A stretch of 64,000 nt of DNA from Terriglobia bacterium (GTDB taxonomy: Bacteria > Acidobacteriota > Terriglobia > JAJPHL01 > JAPKYU01), in NCBI GenBank assembly GCA_965206645.1, contig CBDBKE010000004.1:1728001-1792000 (forward strand), given 5' to 3'. Both the position numbers and the translations under genes were made by a program. This document shows positions 1-12,109 of the stretch, one piece after another (the first letter of the stretch is position 1; the number at the start of each line of letters is the position of its first letter). A model generated the notes under the pieces. That model worked only from the letters and a program-made list of their open reading frames with translations. It did no database searches and was not told the origin of the DNA.

Positions 1-644
1 CCCACCACCACCAGGGCGTCCACAGCCGGCAACAGCCGCTCGAGCGCCTGCTGCCGCTCACGGGTGGGACGGCAGACGGTGTCCACGAACCGGATCTCGG
101 TGGTGGGATTCTTGGCCTGCACCGCCCGCAGCACCGCGCGAAGCAGCGCATCAGGGGTGGTCGTCTGGCAGATCACCCCAAGCCGCTCGGCCGGGTAGCT
201 ACGGACCTCGGCCGGCGATTCCACCACCTCGCAGCGACGAAGGTCCCCCACCAGCCCCCGCACTTCCACGTGCCCCCGTCGCCCGATCACCAGCACCAGG
301 CAGCCTTCGGCATCCAGCCGCAGCGCAGCCTGGTGCGCCCGGCGCACGAGGGGACAGGTGGTGTCCAGCAGGCGGCGGTCGGTGGACTCGAGCCGCGCGC
401 GCTCCGCGTTGCTGATGCCGTGCGCGGTGATCAGCACCACCGGCGTTTCCGGCACTGCCTGCTTCCGGCTGTGCTCGGTAAGCTGCCGAAAGCCGCGCTC
501 CGCCAGCCTTCGGTTCACTTCCTGGTTGTGCACCAGCTCACCGTAGACGGTGACGTGGTGCGGTTCGGGGACTGCGGCGATGGATTCCAGCGCGTCGCGG
601 ACCCCGAAACAGAGTCCCATGGCCTCGGCGCGGATGACTTGCAT
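1..644 (-). CDS. ispH: 4-hydroxy-3-methylbut-2-enyl diphosphate reductase (3' end runs off the window)
   Basis: Not in the ORF track. Manual minus-strand translation from ATG 644 gives MQVIRAEAMGLCFGVRDA...GELVHN...ITAHG...DTTCPLV...IGRRGHVEV...ICQTT...DTVC, the IspH/LytB motifs. GGAGG RBS upstream. Confidence 0.9.
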   Translation of the reverse strand, partial: MQVIRAEAMGLCFGVRDALESIAAVPEPHHVTVYGELVHNQEVNRRLAERGFRQLTEHSRKQAVPETPVVLITAHGISNAERARLESTDRRLLDTTCPLVRRAHQAALRLDAEGCLVLVIGRRGHVEVRGLVGDLRRCEVVESPAEVRSYPAERLGVICQTTTPDALLRAVLRAVQAKNPTTEIRFVDTVCRPTRERQQALERLLPAVDALVVV

Positions 645-686
645 GGAGAACCTCCGTGTTGGGAACGTACTTTACACTATGTAGGC

Positions 687-701
687 CTCTGTAATGCAAA
701 G
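687..701. promoter_or_regulatory. Degenerate copy of the CTTTGCR-N-YGCAAAG operator upstream of ispH
   Basis: CTCTGTA-A-TGCAAAG, similar to the perfect palindrome at 1766-1780. Confidence 0.5.
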
Positions 702-723
702 TTGAATGCCACAAAAAAACGGC

Positions 724-1152
724 TCAGGCCGGCACCCAGCCGCTGGAGGCGGCCAACGCCTCTCCCTTCCGGGGCTTGCGGGAATGCTTCAGCAGCGCCC
801 TGCGGGTAGCGGCCGCGTCCTGCACCACTTCTTCCAACACCGTCAGGTAAGCCAGGAACCGCTCACGGCCTTGTCGGGAGAGGCGGCAAAGTGTCTGCGG
901 GCGCCGGTTCTCAAACCGCTTCCAGACCTCGACTAGGCCCGCCTCGTACAGCACCTGCAGGTGGCGGCTGAGGTTGCCGTCGGTGAGCGCGCAGAGTTCC
1001 TTCAGGTCAGAGAACAGCACGCCGTCCGGGCGAGTGGCCAGAGTGGTCAGAATTCCCAGGCGCGCGCGTTCGTGCAGCAGCCGGTCCAAGCCTTCGTAGG
1101 CAAAGCGTCCGCCGGTCGGTTGGGTTTCAGACTGCTTCCTCTTCCGAGCCAT
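724..1152 (-). CDS. Winged-helix transcriptional regulator (ArsR/MarR-like, HTH_34 type)
   Basis: LDRLLHERARLGIL...FSDLKELCALTDGNLSRHLQVLYEAGLV...GRERFLAYL. Start moved to MARKRKQ (ATG 1152). Confidence 0.85.
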   Translation of the reverse strand: MARKRKQSETQPTGGRFAYEGLDRLLHERARLGILTTLATRPDGVLFSDLKELCALTDGNLSRHLQVLYEAGLVEVWKRFENRRPQTLCRLSRQGRERFLAYLTVLEEVVQDAAATRRALLKHSRKPRKGEALAASSGWVPA

Positions 1153-1756
1153 TTCTCTCCAGATTCCAGTAGAGCACCATCGCGGCTGCCAACTGGCCGA
1201 CGCCGAAGGTTGCCCCCATAACCCACGGTGCCAGCGCCTCCCGTCCGGGCAAGTAGTGCAGGATCGCGGCCCCACACACTAAGTAGTACAGGCCCACCCA
1301 GCCGATGGTTCGCGGCAGGTGACGCCGAGAGGCAAATACGCCCAGGCTGACTAGCATCGCCCACAGGCCCGGCAACAAGGCCACCAAATCGGGGTGCCGC
1401 CAAGTCAGGATCCAGGTCAGCAACGCGCCGGTCGTCAGCGAGGGCAGCAGTTGCCCCACCACGATTCGCGTGGTGGGGCGCCGGTGGGCCGAGGCACAGT
1501 TCAGATAGCCATGCAACATTTGCGCGCCAACGCCGGCCGCGCACAGCACCGCGGCCCCCACCCACAGCATGACGTACCACACAGGCTGAACCACGGGGTC
1601 GCCGGCCAACGTCGGCTGCGCCAGCGCCGCCAGCAGCGCTACTACGCCGGTGGCCGCGGCAGGCACGGCTCGGTAGCCGCGGAAGGTTTCCGCAGTCACC
1701 AGGTGCCCGCGGATCGCGCTGATCTGCTCCAGTGCCTCGTGCAGTTCCGGCGGCAT
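1127..1756 (-). CDS. Polytopic membrane protein (~6 TM), co-transcribed with the regulator
   Basis: Start MPPELHEALEQISAIR at ATG 1756, hydrophobic segments, overlaps the regulator start. The ORF-track extension to 2278 is antisense to the radical SAM gene. Confidence 0.75.
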   Translation of the reverse strand: MPPELHEALEQISAIRGHLVTAETFRGYRAVPAAATGVVALLAALAQPTLAGDPVVQPVWYVMLWVGAAVLCAAGVGAQMLHGYLNCASAHRRPTTRIVVGQLLPSLTTGALLTWILTWRHPDLVALLPGLWAMLVSLGVFASRRHLPRTIGWVGLYYLVCGAAILHYLPGREALAPWVMGATFGVGQLAAAMVLYWNLERNGSEEEAV

Positions 1757-1765
1757 AGCTTTATG

Positions 1766-1780
1766 CTTTGCGTCGCAAAG
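1766..1780. promoter_or_regulatory. Perfect palindromic operator CTTTGCG-T-CGCAAAG
   Basis: Inverted repeat between the minus-strand promoter and ATG 1756. Confidence 0.7.
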
Positions 1781-1788
1781 TATAACAA

Positions 1789-1817
1789 AGTATATGCAGG
1801 CTGCCTTCCGTATGCAA
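1789..1817 (-). promoter_or_regulatory. Sigma70-type promoter TTGCAT-N17-TATACT
   Basis: -35 at 1817-1812 and -10 at 1794-1789. A second TGnTATACT lies at 1787-1779. Confidence 0.6.
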
Positions 1818-1897
1818 GCAGAAATTCTTGCCCGCCTGCGGGCAGGCCGCTGGGTTTTGCTATCATGAACGGGAGCGCGCCTGGGAGCCGCCGCCGC

Positions 1898-3298
1898 ATG
1901 AGTCCGGAAGTCGTTCTCATTTCGACCTACGAGCTGGGGCGCCAGCCCTTCGGGCTGGCTTCGCCCGCCGCCTGGCTGCGACAGGCCGGGGCTTCGGTCA
2001 CCTGCCTGGACCTTTCCCGGGAGAAGCTGCGGGAAGAGCCGGTGCGCTCGGCCAACCTGGTGGCGTTCTATGTCCCCATGCACACGGCGACTCGCATCGC
2101 GGCGCGGGCCGTGGAAACCGTCCGTCGCCTGAACCCGCGCGCGCACCTCTGCTTCTACGGTCTCTACGCGCCGCTCAATGAGCGCTACCTTCGTGGGCTG
2201 GGCGCGGAAACGATTCTGGGGGGCGAGTTCGAACAGGGTATGGTTCGGATCCTCGAGCAGTTGCCGGACGGAACCCATGCGCAGAAAGAGCGTCTAGTCT
2301 CGCTGGCGCGCCAAACTTTCCTCGTGCCGGACCGCAGCGGCCTGCCCGGGTTGTCCTCCTACGCGCAGCTAAGGGACGGCCAGGGGCGGCTGCGCACGGT
2401 CGGTTACACCGAGGCCACTCGCGGTTGCAAGCACCTGTGCCGCCACTGCCCCGTTGTTCCGGTCTACAACGGCGCCTTCCGGGTGGTGCAACGGGACGTG
2501 GTGCTGGAGGACATTCGCCGCCAGGTCGCGGCGGGCGCCGAACACATCACCTTCGGCGACCCCGATTTCCTAAACGGCGTCAGGCACTCGCTGGAAATTG
2601 TGCGAACTCTACACCGCGAGTTTCCCCGGCTCACCTACGATGTGACCACCAAGGTGGAGCACCTGCGGAAGCACGCCGCCGCGCTGCCGGTTCTGGCCGA
2701 AACCGGCTGCCAGTTTGTTACCAGCGCCGTCGAATCGGTGGACGACCGCGTATTGCAGCTGCTGGACAAGGGGCACACCCGCGCCGATTTGTACGACGTC
2801 GTGGCGCTATGCCGGCGCACAGGCCTGGTGCTGGCGCCGACCTTTGTCGCCTTTACGCCGTGGATCACGCTGCGAGGCTACTGCGACCTACTGGCGGTAC
2901 TGGACGAGCTGGAGCTGGTCGAGCAGGTGGCGCCCGTCCAGCTCGCCATCCGGCTGCTGATCCCCACCGGTTCACGGCTGCTGGAATTGGAGGAGGTGCG
3001 GCAGCTCGTCGCTGGCGGCTTCGATGAGGCCGCGTTGAGTTACCGCTGGAAGCATCCCGACCTGCGGGTGGACCGCATGTGTGATCAAGTCCAGCGGGCA
3101 GTCTGGCAGGCTGAAAAGCAGGGTCGCTCGCGGCGGGCAATTTTCTCCCAAGTCTGGGAGCTGGCGCATCAGGCGGCAGGCATTTCTACGCAGGCGCTGC
3201 AAGTTCCCGACCCCTACCAGCGCACTACCGTGCCCTACCTGAACGAGCCCTGGTATTGTTGAGCCGAACCCACCGAAGAGCAGTTTGCTCTTGTATGA
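1898..3298 (+). CDS. CUAEP-tail radical SAM selenoprotein (N-terminal B12-binding-like domain), Sec at TGA 3260-3262
   Basis: CxxxCxxC motif (GCKHLCRHCP). Sequence continues in frame after TGA: PYLNEPWYC-U-AEPTEEQFALV* (stop 3296-3298). Start taken as ATG 1898 because ATG 1865 overlaps the extended -10 TGCTATCAT. Confidence 0.88.
3276..3292 (+). promoter_or_regulatory. Candidate bacterial SECIS hairpin
   Basis: AAGAGC-AGTTT-GCTCTT: perfect 6-bp stem with G in the apical loop, starting 13 nt after the UGA. Confidence 0.65.
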
Positions 3299-3321
3299 AG
3301 CAAGCCTTGTATGAAGCAAGC
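3290..3321 (+). repeat. 16-bp perfect tandem duplication CTTGTATGAAGCAAGC x2
   Basis: Copies at 3290-3305 and 3306-3321, spanning the rSAM stop and ATP-grasp start. Confidence 0.95.
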
Positions 3322-4624
3322 AATGACGCCCCGGCTCCTTCTTCTCGCCACCACCACCGGCTACCAGACGCAAGCGTTTGCCGAAGCGGCGCGTGGCCTG
3401 GGGTTGGAGGTGGTGTTAGGCACCGACCGCTGCCACGTGCTGGAAGACCCCTGGCAGGACGCTGCGCTGCCTCTGCGCTTTGAAGATCCTGCGCACGCGG
3501 CCGATGAGATTTGCCACTACGCCCGCGAGCATCCCATCCAGGCTATGACGGCGGTGGGCGACAAGCCCACAGTGACGGCTGCGGTAGCCTGCCGTTCACT
3601 GGGAATTACCTGGCACAGCCCCGAGGGGGCCGAAGCCTGCCACAACAAGTTCCTTGCCCGGCAGCGGTTCGAGGAAGCGGGGCTGAACGTGCCTGCCTAT
3701 GCCCGCTATTCCACTCGCGACGGGCCGCCTCCGACCGACGGCGGGAGCGTGTCTTGCGTCCCGTTCCCCTGCGTGCTGAAGCCGGTGTCGCTAGCCGCCA
3801 GCCGGGGCGTCATTCGCGCTGACAACCCGGAGCAATTCGCGGCCGCCTTCCACCGCATCGCCGCGCTGCTGGCTAGCCCCGAAATCCAGGTGAAGAAGGA
3901 GGCTGAGACCGAGCAGATTCTGGTGGAGGAGTTTGTTCCCGGGTCCGAATTTGCGGTGGAAGGGCTCATGTGGCGGGGCAGGCTGCGGGTTCTGGCCATC
4001 TTCGACAAGCCTGACCCGTTGGAAGGTCCCTACTTCGAAGAGACAATTTACGTGACGCCCTCGCGACTGCCTGTGAGCGAGCAGGCGGCCCTGACCGAGT
4101 GTTTGGAGCGTGCTGTGCGCGCTCTGGGGCTGTTCCACGGCCCCGTGCACGCCGAGTTCCGCTTGAATGACGGCGGCCCTTGGGTGTTGGATGTGGCTGC
4201 GCGGCCCATCGGCGGCCTTTGCTCGCGCGCCCTCCGCTTCGGTGCGGGTATGTCTCTGGAGGAGCTGGTCATTCTCAATGCCCTGGGCCGGCGCAATGCC
4301 CTGAGCCAGCGCAATGCCCGGGGCGAGTCGCTCGACGGGATTGCCCGGGAAAGTGCAGCGGCAGGGGTCATGATGATTCCCATCCCCGGCGCCGGGGTTT
4401 TCGAGGGAGTGGAAGGGGTGGAAGACGCCTTGCGGGTGCCAGGCGTCGAAGAGGTCCACGTTACCGCCAAGCTGCACCAGAAGCTGGTGCCTTGGCCGGA
4501 GGGCGCCAGCTATCCGGGCTTCCTGTTTGCCCGCGCTTCCTCCCCAGCGGCCGTGGAGGAGGCGTTGCGCGAAGCTCACCGGCGCCTGCGCTTCCGAATC
4601 TCGCCGATGCTCGCGGTTGTCTAA
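3311..4624 (+). CDS. ATP-grasp domain ligase (L-amino-acid-ligase-like)
   Basis: CHNKFLARQRF, FPCVLKPVSLAASRGV, ILVEEFVPGSEFAVEG, GPVHAEFRL, AARPIGG. Confidence 0.88.
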   Translation: MKQAMTPRLLLLATTTGYQTQAFAEAARGLGLEVVLGTDRCHVLEDPWQDAALPLRFEDPAHAADEICHYAREHPIQAMTAVGDKPTVTAAVACRSLGITWHSPEGAEACHNKFLARQRFEEAGLNVPAYARYSTRDGPPPTDGGSVSCVPFPCVLKPVSLAASRGVIRADNPEQFAAAFHRIAALLASPEIQVKKEAETEQILVEEFVPGSEFAVEGLMWRGRLRVLAIFDKPDPLEGPYFEETIYVTPSRLPVSEQAALTECLERAVRALGLFHGPVHAEFRLNDGGPWVLDVAARPIGGLCSRALRFGAGMSLEELVILNALGRRNALSQRNARGESLDGIARESAAAGVMMIPIPGAGVFEGVEGVEDALRVPGVEEVHVTAKLHQKLVPWPEGASYPGFLFARASSPAAVEEALREAHRRLRFRISPMLAVV

Positions 4625-4635
4625 GCGCTGCTTTC

Positions 4636-4914
4636 TCAGCTCTTGGCCTGGGGTGGGACGTAACCGGGTGGGAGGGCGGCTCCTTCGCCAAAAAAGAATT
4701 GCTCCATCTGCCCCTCGATGAGCTTCTGCGCTTCCGGATCGGCCGGGAAGAGCCGGTATTCATTGATGACCATCTTCAGGTGTTCCAGCCACAGCTTCCA
4801 GGCGTCCTGCGAGATATTGTCGTAGACCCGCTGCCCCAGTTCGCCGCTCCAGGGCGGCGCGTCCAGCCCGGGGAGCTCTTTCTGAAACTTAACGCACTTT
4901 ACTTTGTGTGCCAT
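4636..4914 (-). CDS. yggX: Fe(II)-trafficking / oxidative damage protection protein
   Basis: [51 protein letters not shown]...MEQFFFG. Confidence 0.9.
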
Positions 4915-5090
4915 TGGCTGTGTGCCATTCGCTACGGCCTTTCCTGAGGGTTCCGGAAATCAGTATTTCCGTGGCGGCTCGGGGACCGGCCGCCCACTCC
5001 AAGCTAGCATAGATCGGGACCGGGCGCCACATCGTTCCCCCTTTGTCGTTTCGTTGTATTCGTTGTATTCTTGGTATTCAGGAGAGGAGG

Positions 5091-5426
5091 ATGAACGTGT
5101 CAGAACTGGCCGCAAAGACTTGCATACCGTGTCGCGGCGGAGTCCCGCCGCTCAAAGGGCCGGAACTAGAGGGGCTCAACCGGCAGGTCCCTGGCTGGAA
5201 TGTCGTTGAGGAGCACCACCTCGAGAAAACCTTCCGCTTCCCTGATTTCCGAAGAGCCCTGGAGTTTGTGAATCGGGTAGGAAACCTGGCCGAAGAGCAG
5301 GGGCATCACCCGGATATCTTTCTCGCCTGGGGAAAGGTGGGGGTCAAGATCTGGACGCACAAGATTGACGGGCTGACGGAAAGCGATTTCATTCTGGCCG
5401 CCAAGATTGACGCACTGAGCTCGTAA
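5091..5426 (+). CDS. phhB: Pterin-4-alpha-carbinolamine dehydratase
   Basis: CIPCRGG, FRFPDF, AEEQGHHPDI, WTHKIDGLTESDFILAAKID. GGAGAGGAGG RBS directly before ATG 5091. Confidence 0.9.
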   Translation: MNVSELAAKTCIPCRGGVPPLKGPELEGLNRQVPGWNVVEEHHLEKTFRFPDFRRALEFVNRVGNLAEEQGHHPDIFLAWGKVGVKIWTHKIDGLTESDFILAAKIDALSS

Positions 5427-5457
5427 GCGACCGGGGGCGGAGTAGGAGGCAACGAGC

Positions 5458-6171
5458 ATGAGCGACAGAAAAGAACTGGAGCTTCGCTTCTGTGAGTAGC
5501 TTGGCTTGACCAGGAGGCCGGTGGCAGTGAGCTTTCTCCCCGAGGAACCGACTCAGCTTCCCAGGTTCAGCGGGAGCGAGCCCTCCGGGTGCAGCTTCTG
5601 GCGCCTGGCTGCTGAGGGGCGCACCTTTCACACGGTTCCGGCGGACCACTACAACTGTGCGGTGGGCAGCTACACCCATAACGTCGAGCTTCCGCCGGAG
5701 CGCGCCCGGGAACTGGACGAGACGCTGGGGCTGATGACCTCGGTGGGCTACCTGAGCCTGGACGAGATTCCAAGGATTCCGCGTTTACCCCGGCCGCCGG
5801 CGGCGGTCCTCTATTCGCCGCTGGCCGACGCGCCTATGGCCCCGCAGGTGGTCCTGTTCGCCTGCCGGCCGGCGGCCGCCATGTTGCTCAGCGAGGCGGC
5901 GGCACGCGCCGGTGCGAACTCTTCGCTGCCGGCGCTGGGACGGCCCACGTGCATGGCCCTGCCTGCCGCGCTTTCCGCTGCCGGCGCCGTCACCAGTTTG
6001 GGTTGCATCGGGAACCGGGTATACACGGGGTTGAGCGAAGATGAGTTGTACGTGGTGATTCCCGGTCCCGCCCTGCCGGGTGTAGCCGAGGCCCTGGAAA
6101 CCATCGTCTCCGCCAACCGAAATCTTGCCGCCTATGCCGAGAATCGCCGCCGCGCGCTGGCCTCCGAATAA
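5458..6171 (+). pseudogene. DUF169-family Cys-rich protein with an in-frame TAG at codon 14 (5497-5499)
   Basis: AGGAGG RBS then ATG 5458: MSDRKELELRFCE*LGLTRRPVAVSF...GCSFW...HYNCAVG...RPTC...SLGCIGNRVY. Could be expressed from TTG 5506 or GTG 5527. Confidence 0.7.
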
Positions 6172-6250
6172 GTCGTTGGGGAACGAGACGAGGGGGCTCC
6201 GCCCCCCGTCAGGGGCCGGCCAATGTCCATCACGTTCCTGGCGGCCACTC

Positions 6251-6280
6251 TTGAGCGCCAAGGGGCGTTCCTGCTATGAT
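6251..6280 (+). promoter_or_regulatory. Promoter TTGAGC-N18-TATGAT (extended -10) for the HNH operon
   Basis: TG-C-TATGAT at 6272-6280. Confidence 0.5.
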
Positions 6281-6433
6281 TCTTAGGAAGCTGGGAGAAA
6301 CGGCCGAGTCATGACGCAGGTCCTGGATTTCCGAAGTCTGAGGCCCCGCTGGTCGGGGCTTGATCCACGCCTGCCCGTTGCAGCCTTCGCCTTTCGCCTT
6401 CCCAACTCCAAAGCGAAAAGTTGAACCATTTCA

Positions 6434-6952
6434 ATGAGCGAGCTGCACATTCCTGTTCTGGTTCTCAATGCCACCTACGAGCCCATCAACGTCTGTGCCG
6501 CTCGCCGGGCCGTGGTGCTGATCCTGAAAGGGGTTGCCTCCGCTGAGGAGGAAAGCCGGGCTTACTTTCACTCCCCGTCGCGCAGGGTACGTGTGCCCTC
6601 CGTGATCCGTCTATTGGGATACCGGCGCATCCCTTTCCAGGGCCGGGCTCTGTCACGCAAGAACATCCTGATGCGGGACCGCAACACCTGCCAGTTCTGC
6701 GGCGGGGCCTTTCCGGCCTCGGAATTGACGCTGGACCACATTGTTCCGCGCTCGCGGGGCGGCGATTCCAGTTGGGAGAATCTGGTGGCCTGCTGCCATC
6801 CCTGCAACAACCAGAAAGGTGACCGCCTGCCGGAGGAAGCCGGCATGAGGCTCATCGGCCGACCACGCTCCTTCACCCTGCATACCAGCCGCCACCTGAT
6901 GCACCAGATGGGCAGGTCCGACGCCGCCTGGCGGAAGTACTTGTTCTTCTGA
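6434..6952 (+). CDS. HNH endonuclease (McrA-like)
   Basis: [55 protein letters not shown]. Confidence 0.92.
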
Positions 6953-6976
6953 GCCGCTTGGGCCGAGAAAACGCAG

Positions 6977-7486
6977 GTGCCGACCAAACCGATCCTGTTG
7001 CTTCTGGGGGCCTGGATGGGTGGCACGTTGCTGATCTGGCTGGTGGCTACGGTCAGCTTCCGCAACGTGGACCGCGTGCTCAGCCGACCGACGCCGGAGG
7101 CGGCGCCGACGCTGCTCTCCGTTCCGGAAGCCGCGCGACGCCCGGTCTTGCGGCACTTGGCTTCGGAGTTCAACCGCTGGTTGTTCCGGCTGTGGGGCGC
7201 TCTGCAACTAGTGTTGGGCGCGGCCGTGCTAGTGCTGTTGCTAAGACAAACGCCGCGCACTCCGGCCAACCTCACCCTCGCCGGCCTCCTGCTGGTGCTG
7301 GTGGTGGTGATGCTGGGCGTCATTACTCCGGCCATGAGCAACCTCGGACGCACCCTGGATTTTGTTCCACGCAGCCCGCCTCCCCCGCAAATGGCCGCTT
7401 TCGGCAAGCTCCATGCCGCTTATGGCTTCCTGGACCTGATCAAGCTGGTGCTGGCAGGCATCCTGGCCTGGCGTGTTGGGCGCTAA
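6977..7486 (+). CDS. DUF4149-like 4-TM membrane protein
   Basis: Four hydrophobic helices; AWMGG near the N-terminus and FGKLH near the C-terminus. Confidence 0.7.
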   Translation: MPTKPILLLLGAWMGGTLLIWLVATVSFRNVDRVLSRPTPEAAPTLLSVPEAARRPVLRHLASEFNRWLFRLWGALQLVLGAAVLVLLLRQTPRTPANLTLAGLLLVLVVVMLGVITPAMSNLGRTLDFVPRSPPPPQMAAFGKLHAAYGFLDLIKLVLAGILAWRVGR

Positions 7487-7518
7487 TACCGTGACTGGTC
7501 CTCGCTGAGCGACTCAGA

Positions 7519-9003
7519 CTAACTTCTGGAAAGTACGCGGGCGACGGCTTGCTTCCAGCCGGCGTAGAGTTCTTCGCGGCGCCCTGGGTCCAGGCGTGGA
7601 TCAAAGACGCGTTCCTGCTTCCATAGCGTTTCCAGTTCGTCAGTGGTTTCCCAGACGCCCACCGCCAGGCCGGCCAGGTAGGCGGCGCCCAGCGCGGTGG
7701 TTTCAGTGTAGGCGGGGCGAACGACGCGGGCGCCCAACAGGTCAGCCTGAAATTGGAGCAGGAAATCGTTGCGGGCTGCGGCGCCATCCACCCGCAGTTC
7801 GCGGATTTCGACCTGCGCGTCGCGCTGCATGGCTTCGACGAGGTCCCGGGTCTGGTAGGCGATGGACTCCAGCGTGGCGCGTGCGATGTGGGCGGCGGTG
7901 GTGCCGCGCGAAAGGCCCAGGATTGCCCCGCGAGCGTGCGGGTCCCAGTAAGGCGCTCCCAGACCCACAAACGCCGGCACCACGTAGACGCCACCGCTGG
8001 AGGCGACCGACTGCGCCAGCTCCCCGCTGGCAGCCGTGTCGGGAAACAGCCGCAGCGTGTCGCGCATCCAATCCAGTGCCGCGCCCGCCATGAACACGCT
8101 GCCTTCCAATGCATAGGCACGCTGGCCTGCCGGGGAGCAGGCTACGGTGGAAACCAGCCGGTGCCGGGACGGCACCGGCTGGCTGCCGGTGTGCAGCAGC
8201 AGGAAGGTGCCAGTGCCATAGGTGTTTTTCGCCATTCCCGTCCGGAAACAGGCTTGGCCGAAGAGCGCTGCTTGCTGGTCGCCGCCAATGCCGGCGATGG
8301 GAATGGGCGCTCCAAACCATTCCGGATCGCTTTCCCCGCACACCTCCGAGGAGCCGCGTACCGAGGGCAGCACTTCGGCGGGCACCTTGAGCATGTCCAG
8401 CAGGCGTTCGTCCCAGCGGCGCTCCTTGAGGTTAAACAGCAGAGTACGCGAGGCGTTCGAGGCATCGGTGGCGTGCAGGCGCCCCTTGGTCAGCTTGTAG
8501 AGCAGCCAGCAATCCACCGTGCCGAACAGCAGTTCTCCGCCGGCCGCGCGGTGACGCAGGCCGGGCATCGAGTCCAGCAGCCAGCGCAGCTTGGTGCCGG
8601 AGAAATAGGGATCGGCCAGCAGCCCGCTGCAACGCGTGAGTTCCGCCTCCCGCCCATCACGCCGCAATTGCTCGCACAGGTCCGCGGTGCGACGGTCCTG
8701 CCAGACAATGGCGGGGGCCACCGCGCGCCCGCTCTTGCGTTCCCAAAGCAAAGTGGTCTCGCGCTGGTTGCTAATGCCCAGCGCGGCCACCTCGCGCGCT
8801 TGGACGCCGGCGCTGGCCAGCGCCTGGCGGGCGGCTTCCAGCTGCGCCTCCCAGATTTGCTCGGCGGCCTGCTCGACCCACCCCTCGCGGGGATACCGGC
8901 ACTGGATGGGCCGGCTGGCGATGGCTCGTTGCGCTCCCTGCTCGTCAAACAGAATCGCCCGCGCGGTGGTCGTACCTTCGTCCAGTGCCAGTACGTAGCG
9001 CAT
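7519..9003 (-). CDS. glpK: Glycerol kinase
   Basis: MRYVLALDEGTTT, GISNQRET, AIVWQDRRT, DPYFSGTK, GDQQAALFGQ, KNTYGTG, LGAPYWD. Confidence 0.96.
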   Translation of the reverse strand: MRYVLALDEGTTTARAILFDEQGAQRAIASRPIQCRYPREGWVEQAAEQIWEAQLEAARQALASAGVQAREVAALGISNQRETTLLWERKSGRAVAPAIVWQDRRTADLCEQLRRDGREAELTRCSGLLADPYFSGTKLRWLLDSMPGLRHRAAGGELLFGTVDCWLLYKLTKGRLHATDASNASRTLLFNLKERRWDERLLDMLKVPAEVLPSVRGSSEVCGESDPEWFGAPIPIAGIGGDQQAALFGQACFRTGMAKNTYGTGTFLLLHTGSQPVPSRHRLVSTVACSPAGQRAYALEGSVFMAGAALDWMRDTLRLFPDTAASGELAQSVASSGGVYVVPAFVGLGAPYWDPHARGAILGLSRGTTAAHIARATLESIAYQTRDLVEAMQRDAQVEIRELRVDGAAARNDFLLQFQADLLGARVVRPAYTETTALGAAYLAGLAVGVWETTDELETLWKQERVFDPRLDPGRREELYAGWKQAVARVLSRS

Positions 9004-9087
9004 GCGGGCGCTATCAAAGCATGTTTTGGCTGCCTCGTCCACCGCCCCGATGAGGAATCGCCTGCCCGCTGGTGGGCCTTTCGCTGA

Positions 9088-9147
9088 CGCGCGCGGCTCG
9101 GAATCTTCCAACTGCCAGAACGCAAAGGGACTGCCGAGCGTCGCGCG
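9088..9147. repeat. GC-rich REP-like inverted repeat
   Basis: CGCGCGCGGCTCGG (9088-9101) and CCGAGCGTCGCGCG (9134-9147) are 12/14 complementary. Confidence 0.5.
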
Positions 9148-9209
9148 AGTGCGTTTGCGCTTGATTGGCGCCTCGAAGGCGGTGGTCGCAACGCGGTGGA
9201 GAATTGCGG

Positions 9210-9500
9210 CTAGATCTCGTAGTCCACGGCCGCGACGGATTCGCAGCATGGCCGGACCCGCTCGCCCACCGACACATGGTTGGGGTGCTTCTGGTAGCGG
9301 GCCAGCGCAGCTCGGTCCTCGAAGCCGAAGACGAGCGCGACGTCGTAGGAGCGCGGCGACTTCTGGAAGTCTTCTCCAACTTCCGGCTTGAGAATCCCCG
9401 GAACCCGTTCCGGCAGAGCTTTCAGGCGAGCGACGATGTCGGCCCGATCGGCCTCGTTCACATCCGCTTTGAACTTGAAGAACACGACGTGGCGAACCAA
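9210..9500 (-). CDS. Dabb-family stress-responsive alpha/beta-barrel protein
   Basis: VRHVVFFKFK...LKALPERVPGI...FEDRAALARYQKHPNH...AVDYE. TTG start after GGAGG. Confidence 0.85.
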   Translation of the reverse strand: MVRHVVFFKFKADVNEADRADIVARLKALPERVPGILKPEVGEDFQKSPRSYDVALVFGFEDRAALARYQKHPNHVSVGERVRPCCESVAAVDYEI

Positions 9501-9629
9501 GAGCACCTCCCGTAAATTGTGGCGGCAAATTGTGGCAGGGCTGACTGCTCGACCTCCCGCGAGCAAGAGGCTACATTCTACCTGCCTTGTTTCGAAACAA
9601 ATTGGGTCTGGCAGCCGCGCGCGCAGGCT

Positions 9630-10115
9630 TCAGCGGGTGTACTGGGTCGGGTGCGGACCTTCCTCTAGTATCTGACGGTCCCAGATGGCGCCCTCGCGGG
9701 TGTAGTTGGCCAGCTCAAAGTCCTGGGTCAATTCCAGCGCATCGGTTGGGCAGGCGTCTTCGCAGAGGCCGCAGAACATGCAGCGGGAGGTGTCGTAGAT
9801 GAAGGTCGTCAGCAGCTTACGTCCCTTGCCACCCTCGCGATGCCAGCCCACTACGATCAGGTTCTCTGGGCAGGCCAGCGCGCACAGGTCGCAGGCGATG
9901 CACAGCGTCTCGCCATTCTCCGGGCTGATGTTCAGCCGCGGCGCTCCGCGATAGCGCTCCGCCACCTCCGGCCGAACCTTCGGATACTCTTCGGTGCAGA
10001 TGTTCTTCGGGTGCTGGTAGCGGAAGGTGACCGCCAGACCCTTCAGCAGGTCCACCATGAAAATCTTCCGCAGCCACTCGGAGAGGCGGAAGCCGTTGGT
10101 GAGCTTTTCGGCCAT
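9630..10115 (-). CDS. nuoI: NADH-quinone oxidoreductase subunit I (2x[4Fe-4S])
   Basis: YP...RYRG, CIACDLCALACP, CMFCGLCEDACPTDAL. Confidence 0.9.
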   Translation of the reverse strand: MAEKLTNGFRLSEWLRKIFMVDLLKGLAVTFRYQHPKNICTEEYPKVRPEVAERYRGAPRLNISPENGETLCIACDLCALACPENLIVVGWHREGGKGRKLLTTFIYDTSRCMFCGLCEDACPTDALELTQDFELANYTREGAIWDRQILEEGPHPTQYTR

Positions 10116-10210
10116 TACTAACCTGCTCTAGTATGCAATGGAAACGCTGCTGACGCAAGTATGCACTATCAGATGAGCCCGCCATTGGCCAAAGGTGAGG
10201 AAGCAGTCCG

Positions 10211-12109
10211 TCAAGCGCGGACTTCCTGATCCCTGTATTGCAACTGGTAGAGCTTCCAATAGATGCCGCGGACGGCGAGCAACTCCTGGTGGGTGCCGGA
10301 CTCGCGCAGCCGCCCCTTGTGCATCACCAGAATGCAGGCGGCGCGCTGCACGGTGGAAAGCCGGTGGGCGATGATGATCGAGGTGCGGCCCATCACCATG
10401 CGGTCGAGCGCCTCGCGCACCCGTATTTCGGTTTCCGTATCCACACTGGAGGTGGCCTCGTCCAGCACCAGGATTCGCGGGCGATGCGCCAGCGCGCGGG
10501 CGAAGCTGATGAGCTGCTTCTGGCCGGTTGACAACGTCGCCCCCCGCTCGCGGACCTCCTCGTGGAAGCCGCCGGGCAGCGAGCGGATGAAATCCGCCAG
10601 GTTCACCTGTTCGACAGCCTCTTCCAGGTCGCCCAGCTCCAGATGTTCGCTGCCCAGACGGATGTTGCGCTCCACGGTGCCGGAGAACAGGAACGGGTCC
10701 TGCAGCACGACGCCGAACAGGCGGCGCAGCTCGGTCAGCTCCAACTGGCGAAGATCCACGCCGTCCAGCAGAATCTGGCCGCGCTGCACGTCGTAGAATC
10801 GCAGCAGCAGGCTGCTCAGGGTGGTCTTACCCGCGCCGGTGTGCCCGACAATGGCCACCGTTTCGCCCGGAGCAATGGTGAAGGAAACATCCTTTAGCAC
10901 CCACTCCGGCTCGGCGGGCGGGTTCCCGTCGCCCGCCGGCACCTTTTCCGATCGCCGGCTGGGCGCGCCCCGGTAGGCAAACCAGACGTTGCGGAACTCG
11001 ATTCGTCCCTTTACGTGGTCCAGTCGGACAGGAGTGGCCGGCGAGGTCACCTCCACGGGAGTATCCAGCAATTTGAAGACGCGCTCGGCGCTGGCCATGG
11101 CCCCTTGCAGGATGTTGTACTTCTCGCTCAAATCCATGATCGGCCGGTAGAAGCGCTGCGCATACTGGATGAACGCCACCACCACCCCCAGCGTCAGCGT
11201 CTCGTCCAGCACTCGCAGCCCGCCGTACCACAGAACTAGTCCGATGGCCACGGCGCTCAGGATTTCCACCGTCGGGTAGAACAGGGCGTGGGCGAAGATG
11301 GCGTCCTTGAAAGCCCCCATGTGCCGCCGATTGACTGTCTTGAATTCCCGGAAGCTTTTCTCCTCCCGGTTAAACAGTTGCACCACGGCCATGCCGCTGA
11401 TGTGTTCCTGCAGATACGCATTGATGCGCGCGATGGCGGTGCGGATCCGCCGGTAGGAATCGCGCACCCGCTTGCGAAACAGCGCCGTGGCCAGCGCGAT
11501 CAGGGGCAGCACGGCGAAGGTGACCAGGGCCAGGGGCGCATTCATCCACAGCATAACCACCATGATCGCTGTCAGCGTGAAGCAGTCGCCGAAGATGGCG
11601 ATCACACCCGAGGCGAACATTTCGTTAAGGGCGTCAATGTCGGTCGTCAGCCGGGTCACCAGCCGCCCGACCGGATTGCGGTCAAAGAAGCCCACGTGCA
11701 GCCGTTGCAGGTGGCTGAAAATCTGCATCCGCAGGTCAAACATCGCCTTCTGTCCGGCCAGCTGCATCGTATAGGTCTGCAAGAACTCGACGGCAAAGGA
11801 GGTCACCAGAACCAGGATGTAGAGGATGGCAATCTGGGTGAGGCCGCGGAAGGTGTCAGGGCTCAGGTAGGCGTCCAGGAAGGTGAGGCGTTGGCCGGAC
11901 GACTCGGTCAGGTAGCGGTCCACCGCCACCTTCGTTAGAAAAGGCCCGACCGCCTGCAAGACGGCGTGCACCAGGATGGCGCCCAGGGCCAGCGCCGCCA
12001 GGAAGACGTAGGGGCGCAGGTAGCGCAGCAGGCGCTTCATCAGGCGCGCGTCGTACGCCTTGCCCAGGACCTCTTCTTCGTGGTGGCCGCTCATTTCAGA
12101 TTGGCTCAT
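10211..12109 (-). CDS. ABC exporter TMD-NBD subunit (MdlB-like)
   Basis: 6-TM domain, GHTGAGKT, degenerate signature LSTGQKQ, LDEATSS. Confidence 0.92.
   Translation of the reverse strand: MSQSEMSGHHEEEVLGKAYDARLMKRLLRYLRPYVFLAALALGAILVHAVLQAVGPFLTKVAVDRYLTESSGQRLTFLDAYLSPDTFRGLTQIAILYILVLVTSFAVEFLQTYTMQLAGQKAMFDLRMQIFSHLQRLHVGFFDRNPVGRLVTRLTTDIDALNEMFASGVIAIFGDCFTLTAIMVVMLWMNAPLALVTFAVLPLIALATALFRKRVRDSYRRIRTAIARINAYLQEHISGMAVVQLFNREEKSFREFKTVNRRHMGAFKDAIFAHALFYPTVEILSAVAIGLVLWYGGLRVLDETLTLGVVVAFIQYAQRFYRPIMDLSEKYNILQGAMASAERVFKLLDTPVEVTSPATPVRLDHVKGRIEFRNVWFAYRGAPSRRSEKVPAGDGNPPAEPEWVLKDVSFTIAPGETVAIVGHTGAGKTTLSSLLLRFYDVQRGQILLDGVDLRQLELTELRRLFGVVLQDPFLFSGTVERNIRLGSEHLELGDLEEAVEQVNLADFIRSLPGGFHEEVRERGATLSTGQKQLISFARALAHRPRILVLDEATSSVDTETEIRVREALDRMVMGRTSIIIAHRLSTVQRAACILVMHKGRLRESGTHQELLAVRGIYWKLYQLQYRDQEVRA

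Follow-up and report, generated by a model that had tools for sequence, protein, structure and literature searches.

A selenocysteine-containing relative of the radical SAM enzyme ArsL and its ATP-grasp ligase partner in a Terriglobia bacterium

By sequence, ArsL is the closest characterised relative of the radical S-adenosylmethionine (SAM) protein described here. The ArsL papers describe a canonical-looking radical SAM enzyme which cleaves SAM to methylthioadenosine (MTA) and an aminocarboxypropyl (ACP) species, and in which the three cysteines of a C-terminal RCCLKC tail bind As(III); removal of the tail abolished formation of the C-As bond and SAM cleavage was retained. A 2026 ArsL preprint proposes an Fe-ACP organometallic species that is attacked by the arsenic nucleophile, and according to the discussion of the ArsL work no other canonical radical SAM enzyme is known to break the S-C(gamma) bond of SAM. 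An abstract gives arsQML as the gene context of ArsL. In this study we analysed 64,000 nucleotides of a Terriglobia bacterium of the phylum Acidobacteriota (assembly GCA_965206645.1, contig CBDBKE010000004.1, positions 1,728,001 to 1,792,000; hereafter the window, in whose numbering positions are given), where a radical SAM gene with an in-frame UGA codon is followed by a gene for an ATP-grasp ligase.

The family of the radical SAM protein has a name already. The Haft preprint (10.1101/2022.07.06.499078) lists NF040546 as an uncharacterised family among the very few selenoprotein families with a Cys-Sec (CU) motif, and reads that motif as a hint of interaction with heavy metals. The CU-motif selenoproteins considered in that preprint, namely HgcA, SAO-locus proteins and MerT variants, share the rare vicinal Cys-Sec with the window protein; HgcA, however, has no homology to it and belongs to another enzyme class with another cofactor, the link being two loci and a shared DUF169 neighbour. 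For the terms CUAEP/CCAEP no relevant paper beyond the preprint was found in the literature searched, nor was any report of the pairing with a ligase. An earlier reading made from the letters alone (the sequence-only reading) had put the system forward as its best candidate for an undescribed one; in the literature searched this stands for the pairing, but not for the radical SAM family, which is named both in NCBIfam and in the preprint.

Family and selenocysteine codon of the radical SAM gene

The window was compared with 80 fetched loci, giving 81 loci in all; L-numbers below denote fetched loci, G-numbers genomes and P-numbers proteins. The closest fetched locus (93% protein identity) carries the record label of a Terriglobia metagenome-assembled genome (MAG). 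Both genes were found where the sequence-only reading had placed them, and the features of the pair are as follows.

1898-3298, + strand: CUAEP-tail radical SAM selenoprotein gene; 466 amino acids including Sec455; start ATG 1898, stop TGA 3296-3298
2426-2449, + strand: codons of CxxxCxxC (CKHLCRHC, residues 177-184), the radical SAM [4Fe-4S] ligands, by sequence motif
3257-3262, + strand: codons TGT TGA of the vicinal tail pair Cys454-Sec455, with the UGA at 3260-3262
3263-3295, + strand: tail AEPTEEQFALV, translated past the Sec codon; frame and motif kept in 81/81 loci
3276-3292, + strand: hairpin resembling a selenocysteine insertion sequence (SECIS-like), 6-bp stem, loop AGUUU, 13 nt past the UGA; from centroid fold and comparative pairing
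3290-3321, + strand: exact 16-bp tandem duplication (CTTGTATGAAGCAAGC x2); TRF period 16, 2.0 copies, 100% match
3311-4624, + strand: ATP-grasp gene of the L-amino-acid-ligase type; conserved start probably ATG 3323

The radical SAM gene stops at TGA 3296-3298 and not at 3299-3301, and its product ends in ...LNEPWYC-U-AEPTEEQFALV. It matched the NCBIfam model NF040546, 'CUAEP/CCAEP-tail radical SAM (seleno)protein', with 616.6 bits (cut-off 500; residues 5-454 on model positions 1-457 of 468), and it carries the C-[U/C]-A-E-P motif behind a radical SAM core with CxxxCxxC by which members of this family are recognised. The Pfam Radical_SAM model gave 47.5 bits. The 'B12-binding-like' character proposed by the sequence-only reading was weakly borne out, as the match to PF02310 (17.2 bits, E 0.0047) lies below the cut-off of 32.1; a precomputed PF02310 label is attached to some of the orthologues.

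CxxxCxxC is unchanged in 55 of 55 diverse family members. When these were aligned together with one ArsL, the only invariant cysteines were those of CxxxCxxC and C454, with position 455 being C or a truncation. The 55-member alignment shows no conservation at C36, C85 or C271 of the window protein, and an auxiliary cluster is therefore unlikely. The tail context E-x-W-[FY]-C-[CU]-A-E-P is strictly conserved in the family, and the C-[U/C]-A-E-P motif was found in all 81 loci and in all 31 full-length CC representatives. Relatives occur in at least 580 species of the genome collection, and a search of 1.84 billion representatives returned 621 clusters at E 1e-30 or better. Among the matches listed, only one of 93 representatives of at least 420 residues has the RCCIKC tail typical of ArsL; the listed representatives with an intact C-terminus have E-x-W-[FY]-C(C)AEP or end at the Cys preceding Sec, and the C-termini of the remainder are unrelated or out-of-frame.

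Codon 455 is TGA in 70 and TGT or TGC in 11 of the 81 loci, and in every one of them the reading frame and an AEP[TS]..Q motif persist beyond it. In 69 Sec loci the stem cells of the hairpin are paired at 89.7% (43 sequences, one register) or 92.0% (25 distinct sequences, the other register), with compensatory G-C, A-U and C-G exchanges, compared with just 45-47% for the same columns in the 11 Cys loci. Folding of the single sequence 3250-3330 was not significant (z 0.05), so that the hairpin claim rests on the comparison of Sec with Cys loci. Scans of the window gave no Rfam match at gathering scores and no tRNA; in the genome as a whole the Sec machinery was found, with selA at 553 bits, selB at 309 bits, selD at 354 bits and tRNA-Sec at 78.5 bits. 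With an in-frame UGA, Cys orthologues, a SECIS-like hairpin and the genomic Sec machinery all present, as expected of a bacterial selenoprotein, decoding of UGA 3260-3262 as selenocysteine is supported, and with it the Cys-Sec tail that the sequence-only reading had described. The selD match (G000:C2:761488-762411) itself contains one in-frame TGA, and SelD also looks like a selenoprotein.

The ligase gene and its coupling to the radical SAM gene

The second gene is by its domains an ATP-grasp of the L-amino-acid-ligase (LAL) type, as had been suggested from the letters. All three Pfam matches exceed their cut-offs (ATP-grasp_4 PF13535, 119.8 bits; LAL_C2 PF18603, 54.5 bits; ATPgrasp_N PF18130, 34.7 bits), so that the ATP-grasp core is flanked by the N-terminal and C-terminal LAL domains. 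The top PDB matches by phmmer were the LALs BL00235 (3VOT; E 5.2e-42, 147 bits) and BacD/YwfE (3VMM; about 4e-11). None of the NCBIfam models reached its cut-off, the best being PRK02186 with 95.8 bits against 625; the BacD and DdaF models were also matched. The window ligase thus shares its three domains with BL00235 and BacD; it differs from them in being distant (147 bits to BL00235), in co-occurring with a radical SAM selenoprotein and in lying convergent to yggX or nfu. In 33 orthologues the invariant residues are spread over the whole domain.

The 16-bp tandem duplication spans the stop of the radical SAM gene and generates ATG 3311 in front of the ligase. In the closest relative, L018 (93% identical), the second repeat copy has diverged and there is no equivalent of ATG 3311. 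Since in addition the orthologue alignments begin at query residues 2-8, the ligase probably starts at ATG 3323 rather than at 3311.

Coupling between the two genes is strong and extends across phyla. A ligase is present in 58 of the 81 loci, always on the strand of the radical SAM gene: it follows that gene directly in 43 loci and at a distance of 600-1000 nt in another 10, lies upstream in 4 (L028, labelled NC10; L050, Latescibacterota; L091, Actinomycetota; and L030, unlabelled) and is 6.8 kb away in one. The order of the two genes is thus not the same in all phyla. Sixteen of the other 23 loci had adequate flank and no ligase, and seven had less than 1.3 kb of downstream flank. Gene calls in the fetched loci are our own picks of open reading frames (ORFs) in high-GC DNA, with ORFs of at least 90 amino acids compared; for the family-f27 loci L098-L100 (68-71% GC) frames were chosen by the GC content of third codon positions (GC3).

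Whole genomes gave the same picture. In a sample of 401 genomes across the phylum, 71 were positive for the radical SAM protein (68 over the cut-off plus 3 fragments) and 81 for the ligase (an orthologue at E 1e-60 or better); 68 had both, 3 the radical SAM protein only and 13 the ligase only. The sampled genomes are kin and not independent, and no probability is attached to this co-occurrence. Where both were present they lay within 5 kb in 40 genomes, at 5-15 kb in 2 and elsewhere in the genome in 26, the unlinked pairs including complete single-contig genomes with the genes hundreds of kilobases apart. Ten further genomes whose locus had no ligase were searched whole: an orthologue with 47-60% identity was found elsewhere in seven, with Entotheonella, Chloroflexota, Dormiibacterota and Bryobacterales among their labels, and none was found in Nonomuraea, a Pyrinomonadaceae MAG and an Acidobacteriaceae MAG. 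With the ligase on the radical SAM strand in 58 of 81 loci, and accompanying the radical SAM gene in 68 of 71 positive genomes, the conserved partnership anticipated by the sequence-only reading holds well, and the two enzymes very probably act in one process. With a fixed ligase partner across several phyla, what had been a database label becomes a two-step pathway that can be tested.

Pairs of a radical SAM enzyme and an ATP-grasp also occur, as is generally known, in clusters for ribosomally synthesised peptides with post-translational modifications (RiPPs), where they would modify a ribosomal precursor peptide. At the window pair the gaps measure 141 nt on the upstream side and 12-24 nt from the first gene to the second, and the stop of the convergent yggX follows after 11 nt, leaving no space for a precursor gene in the window, in agreement with the sequence-only reading, which had seen no precursor peptide. 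The ligase is LAL in architecture and relatives and not of the graspetide type, the genes are unlinked in 26 of the 68 genomes with both, and apart from YggX and DUF169 no conserved extra ORF of at least 90 amino acids was found at the loci, smaller ORFs lying outside this comparison. A RiPP system is hardly credible on these grounds, and the locus is very probably not a peptide-modification system.

In a search for longer, possibly fused proteins eight were matched, five of them with both radical SAM and ATP-grasp Pfam labels; they were judged to be merged or frameshifted adjacent genes and rejected as fusions, because the linkers were junk and the CC/CU-AEP motif was out of frame. A similar case is P0274 (865 amino acids, on a 431-kb contig), where the gene call joins a PaaK-like adenylate-forming enzyme to a CUAEP radical SAM protein through a linker that resembles read-through of two neighbouring genes; the PaaK-like enzyme may be an alternative carboxylate-activating partner, as a single case.

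Contigs from RNA libraries (4 runs of one study) covered both genes, mostly at 99% or more; two of them cross the UGA and none crosses the gene junction by 31 nt. As such libraries can hold DNA, they are at most a weak hint of expression. A promoter and terminator scan of 1500-5300 gave no promoter-like sites, and three terminator-like sites against 2.8 expected.

Possible chemistry of the pair

The kinship with ArsL that the sequence-only reading had drawn on was borne out. The second-best NCBIfam match of the radical SAM protein was the ArsL model NF040542, with 288.5 bits against a cut-off of 450, and the protein is 34% identical over 411 residues (E 4e-81) to P0258, which counts as an ArsL by NCBIfam (477 bits, cut-off 450). 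The two models also cross-match, with 362 bits for an ArsL on the CUAEP model and 230-341 bits for CUAEP members on the ArsL model, and in the alignment of the 55 family members with P0258 the CC/CU pair lines up with the CC of the ArsL tail. The two share a common architecture over about 410 residues, CxxxCxxC and a Cys-rich C-terminal tail. They differ in that the window family has ...EPW[YF]C[UC]AEP... followed by 10-30 residues, usually with Sec, whereas ArsL ends in RCCLKC with three Cys; in the window protein only C454 and U455 are found, and the 55 family members have no third conserved Cys. The window locus also has no arsQ, arsM or ars operon context, its partner being the ATP-grasp ligase.

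How the two groups branch was less clear. A quick tree with four outgroups nested P0258 together with P0247 inside the CUAEP/CCAEP family, at a place where long branches meet, but at p 0.54 an approximately unbiased (AU) test did not reject ArsL outside the family, and the tree constrained in this way was better by 2.67 log-likelihood units. The family may be a sister or parent group to ArsL. It is the closest family to ArsL, much larger (at least 580 species, compared with the 147 sequences that the ArsL paper gives for the ArsL model), usually Sec-dependent and uncharacterised.

The most economical reading of these data is that the locus encodes a two-enzyme small-molecule pathway in which ArsL-like ACP transfer is followed by dipeptide formation, with DUF169 sometimes as a third member; we put the probability of this reading at about 40%. 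In the first step, as homology to ArsL would suggest, the Cys-Sec tail would present a soft atom to which the ACP group of SAM is transferred. This atom might be a metalloid or chalcogen bound there, or else the selenolate of the tail could act as a covalent relay. The product would be a gamma-substituted 2-aminobutyrate (2-amino-4-X-butanoate), an analogue of methionine, homocysteine or glutamate. In the second step, as expected from its family, the LAL-type ATP-grasp would use ATP to activate the carboxylate and join this amino acid to a second one, giving a dipeptide. The products of BL00235 are given in Table 2 of a review as Met-Gly and Met-Met, and this is a lead for the substrate of the window ligase, methionine being a gamma-substituted 2-aminobutyrate. 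The data show the coupling of the genes, the homology and the decoding of Sec, whereas the ACP chemistry is inferred, as is the direction in which SAM is cleaved, what the tail does, which step comes first and which acceptor is used; ArsL-like ACP transfer by the window enzyme, which is argued by analogy, is taken on its own as a tentative assignment at somewhat less than even odds.

Several findings weigh against this pathway. Compared with the three Cys used by ArsL, the tail has two chalcogen ligands to offer, and thioredoxin reductase, too, has a C-terminal vicinal Cys-Sec, there as a redox motif. A Pfam survey of 135 neighbouring ORFs from loci L018-L064, made after removal of 11 long near-duplicates, had no ars, metalloid-transport or selenium-metabolism family among its 25 commonest families. 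ArsM-like genes did not discriminate (by hand count, 55 of 71 radical SAM-positive and 215 of 330 radical SAM-negative genomes). In four genomes with the radical SAM gene (G034, G401, G406 and G407) no ligase orthologue was found, and 13 of the 81 ligase-positive genomes, among them all four f27 genomes in the sample (G024 being an unpublished one), have no radical SAM gene, so that the ligase is not strictly dependent on the radical SAM product. Finally, the surroundings of the pair show housekeeping synteny (aconitase, zwf, glk, pterin dehydratase) and ordinary GC content, even at 0.62-0.68 across window positions 1-12000, unlike a typical antibiotic cluster.

The sequence-only reading had proposed that the tail presents a metal or metalloid, such as As(III), and had looked to ars and methyltransferase genes as companions. 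The link to ars genes found no support in the survey above. The co-occurrence with ArsM methyltransferases says nothing either way, because as many as 270 of the 401 genomes of the phylum carry ArsM-like genes; the best ArsM-like match of the window genome lies on another contig and is below the cut-off. A winged-helix regulator of the HTH_34/ArsR superfamily upstream of the pair is not specific. The metalloid part of the earlier idea is possible but unsupported, and As or Sb is an unlikely acceptor.

A stricter form of the idea is that the window enzyme does what ArsL does, making (hydroxy)arsinothricin from As(III) or methylarsenite, which the ligase would turn into a peptide pro-drug. The homology, the nesting of one ArsL inside the CCAEP radiation in the quick tree and the abundance of ArsM-like genes in the phylum would fit, as would the vicinal Cys pair that binds methylarsenite in ArsI. 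However, the score of 288.5 bits lies below the ArsL cut-off of 450, the RCCLKC tail is lacking with two of three ligands present, no ars family is among the commonest neighbours, the best ArsM-like match is on another contig and under its cut-off, and the AU test permits ArsL outside the family. Identity of function with ArsL is considered very unlikely.

The Cys-Sec pair could instead be a redox or hydrogen-donor arm, re-reduced from a selenenylsulfide, of an enzyme doing ordinary 5'-deoxyadenosyl chemistry on a small substrate, possibly a dipeptide made by the ligase. The tail has only two invariant chalcogens, CxxxCxxC and the Radical_SAM match are canonical, and there are analogies in the GCUG tail of thioredoxin reductase and in the C-terminal Cys pair of ribonucleotide reductase. 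Thioredoxin reductase likewise carries its vicinal Cys-Sec on a flexible C-terminal extension; its fold is unrelated, and in the family studied here the pair has behind it a conserved AEP[TS]..Q segment with as many as about 30 further residues. The excess of ligase-only over radical SAM-only genomes (13 versus 3 in the 401-genome sample) fits a ligase acting first, and would also fit a toxic radical SAM product that always needs ligation. ArsL looks just as canonical, yet in it SAM is cleaved in the opposite sense and the Cys tail serves to bind the substrate, and the strict E-x-W-[FY]-C-[CU]-A-E-P context looks more like a docking or binding element. We regard the redox arm as a rather unlikely explanation, though it is the main rival.

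The proposed order of ACP transfer and ligation resembles that in the bacilysin, rhizocticin, dapdiamide and tabtoxin pathways, where an unusual amino acid is made and then hidden in a dipeptide by an LAL. Those antimetabolites come from dedicated clusters with resistance and export genes, whereas the window pair sits amid housekeeping synteny with no such gene conserved beside it, and the two genes are often unlinked. Should the chemistry prove ArsL-like, dipeptides of a new class, with organo-element or modified amino acids, would be common in soil bacteria and the rare Cys-Sec motif would be explained; if it does not, comparison with ArsL would reveal what sets the direction of SAM cleavage.

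Further neighbours of the pair

The genes flanking the pair in the window, and the recurrent arrangements in fetched loci (positions of the locus concerned), are the following.

727-1152, - strand: winged-helix regulator (HTH_34, weak ArsR/MarR matches), divergent from the radical SAM gene
1130-1756, - strand: 209-amino-acid membrane protein with no Pfam family, divergent from the radical SAM gene
4636-4914, - strand: YggX-like Fe(2+)-trafficking / oxidative damage protection gene (PF04362 123.9 bits, NF003817 123.3 bits), convergent with the ligase
5043-5426: pterin-4a-carbinolamine dehydratase gene, between yggX and DUF169
5506-6171, + strand: DUF169 gene (PF02596 81.1 bits), recurrent third neighbour
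6434-6952: HNH endonuclease gene, just downstream of DUF169
L098 6006-6590, L099 7954-8874 and L100 7626-8246: Nfu/NifU genes, convergent with the ligase
L054 8001-13909 and L111 6573-13475: loci with radical SAM, DUF169, CpaM and HgcAB-like genes, no ligase orthologue in the genome

A YggX gene was found in 46 of the 81 loci. In 43 of them it is convergent with the ligase; in the other three (L020 and L048, labelled Methylomirabilota or Methylomirabilales; L082, Methylomirabilis) it directly precedes the radical SAM gene on the same strand. It remains beside the ligase where the radical SAM gene is unlinked (L101, L102). In three f27 genomes with a ligase and no radical SAM gene, an Nfu/NifU scaffold gene lies convergent with the ligase in the place of YggX. 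Upstream of the radical SAM gene an aconitase gene (about 890 amino acids) was found on the opposite strand in at least 10 of the loci L018-L065, with identity of at least 72% to L056:5173-7851.

These iron-related neighbours, together with the housekeeping synteny and native GC content, would fit a pair whose product is a thiol or selenol of low molecular weight, or a dipeptide that binds metal, for iron or Fe-S homeostasis or protection from oxidative stress, and not an antimetabolite. Synteny within one phylum may, however, simply be inherited, and the patchy spread (71 of 401 genomes) is unusual for a core redox buffer. Such a role is accordingly judged improbable. Downstream of the pair, zwf was found in 20 loci and glk in 19, and Pterin_4a was matched in three of the 135 neighbouring ORFs.

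DUF169 was present in 14 of the 81 loci, between the radical SAM gene and the ligase in seven, and it lies next to or near the radical SAM gene in all four ligase-less genomes (G034/L111, L054, L052 and L086). As a family-wide partner it was rejected, the association being weak (by hand count, 23 of 71 radical SAM-positive and 73 of 330 radical SAM-negative genomes); only a lower-scoring DUF169 subgroup seems to be linked to the radical SAM gene. DUF169 had no match in the PDB (best E 0.29). In L054 and L111 the radical SAM and DUF169 genes are followed by CpaM (NF043040, 245 bits), a corrinoid protein-associated methyltransferase, and an HgcAB-like fusion (NF043039, 332 bits). The legend of a figure in a Tara Oceans preprint shows DUF169 and a UbiE-type methyltransferase adjoining HgcA-like genes of Nitrospina. 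The partnership with the ligase, which looks obligate, and the looser ties to DUF169, YggX/Nfu and HgcAB-like/CpaM genes appear to be unreported in the literature searched.

In its widest form, the pathway proposed here would make NF040546 enzymes form C-As, C-Sb, C-Se, C-Te or C-S bonds through ACP transfer to an atom that the Cys-Sec pair binds or itself provides, with the ligase making organo-element dipeptides and DUF169 serving as an element carrier shared with HgcAB-like/CpaM corrinoid methylation. Acidobacteriota, Methylomirabilota, Chloroflexota and further phyla would then have an organo-element metabolism that has so far gone unrecognised. This extension is speculative and unlikely; if true, such dipeptides would be made by hundreds of species of soil and groundwater bacteria. 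Locus L054 contains, besides the genes listed, an additional B12-binding/radical SAM protein.

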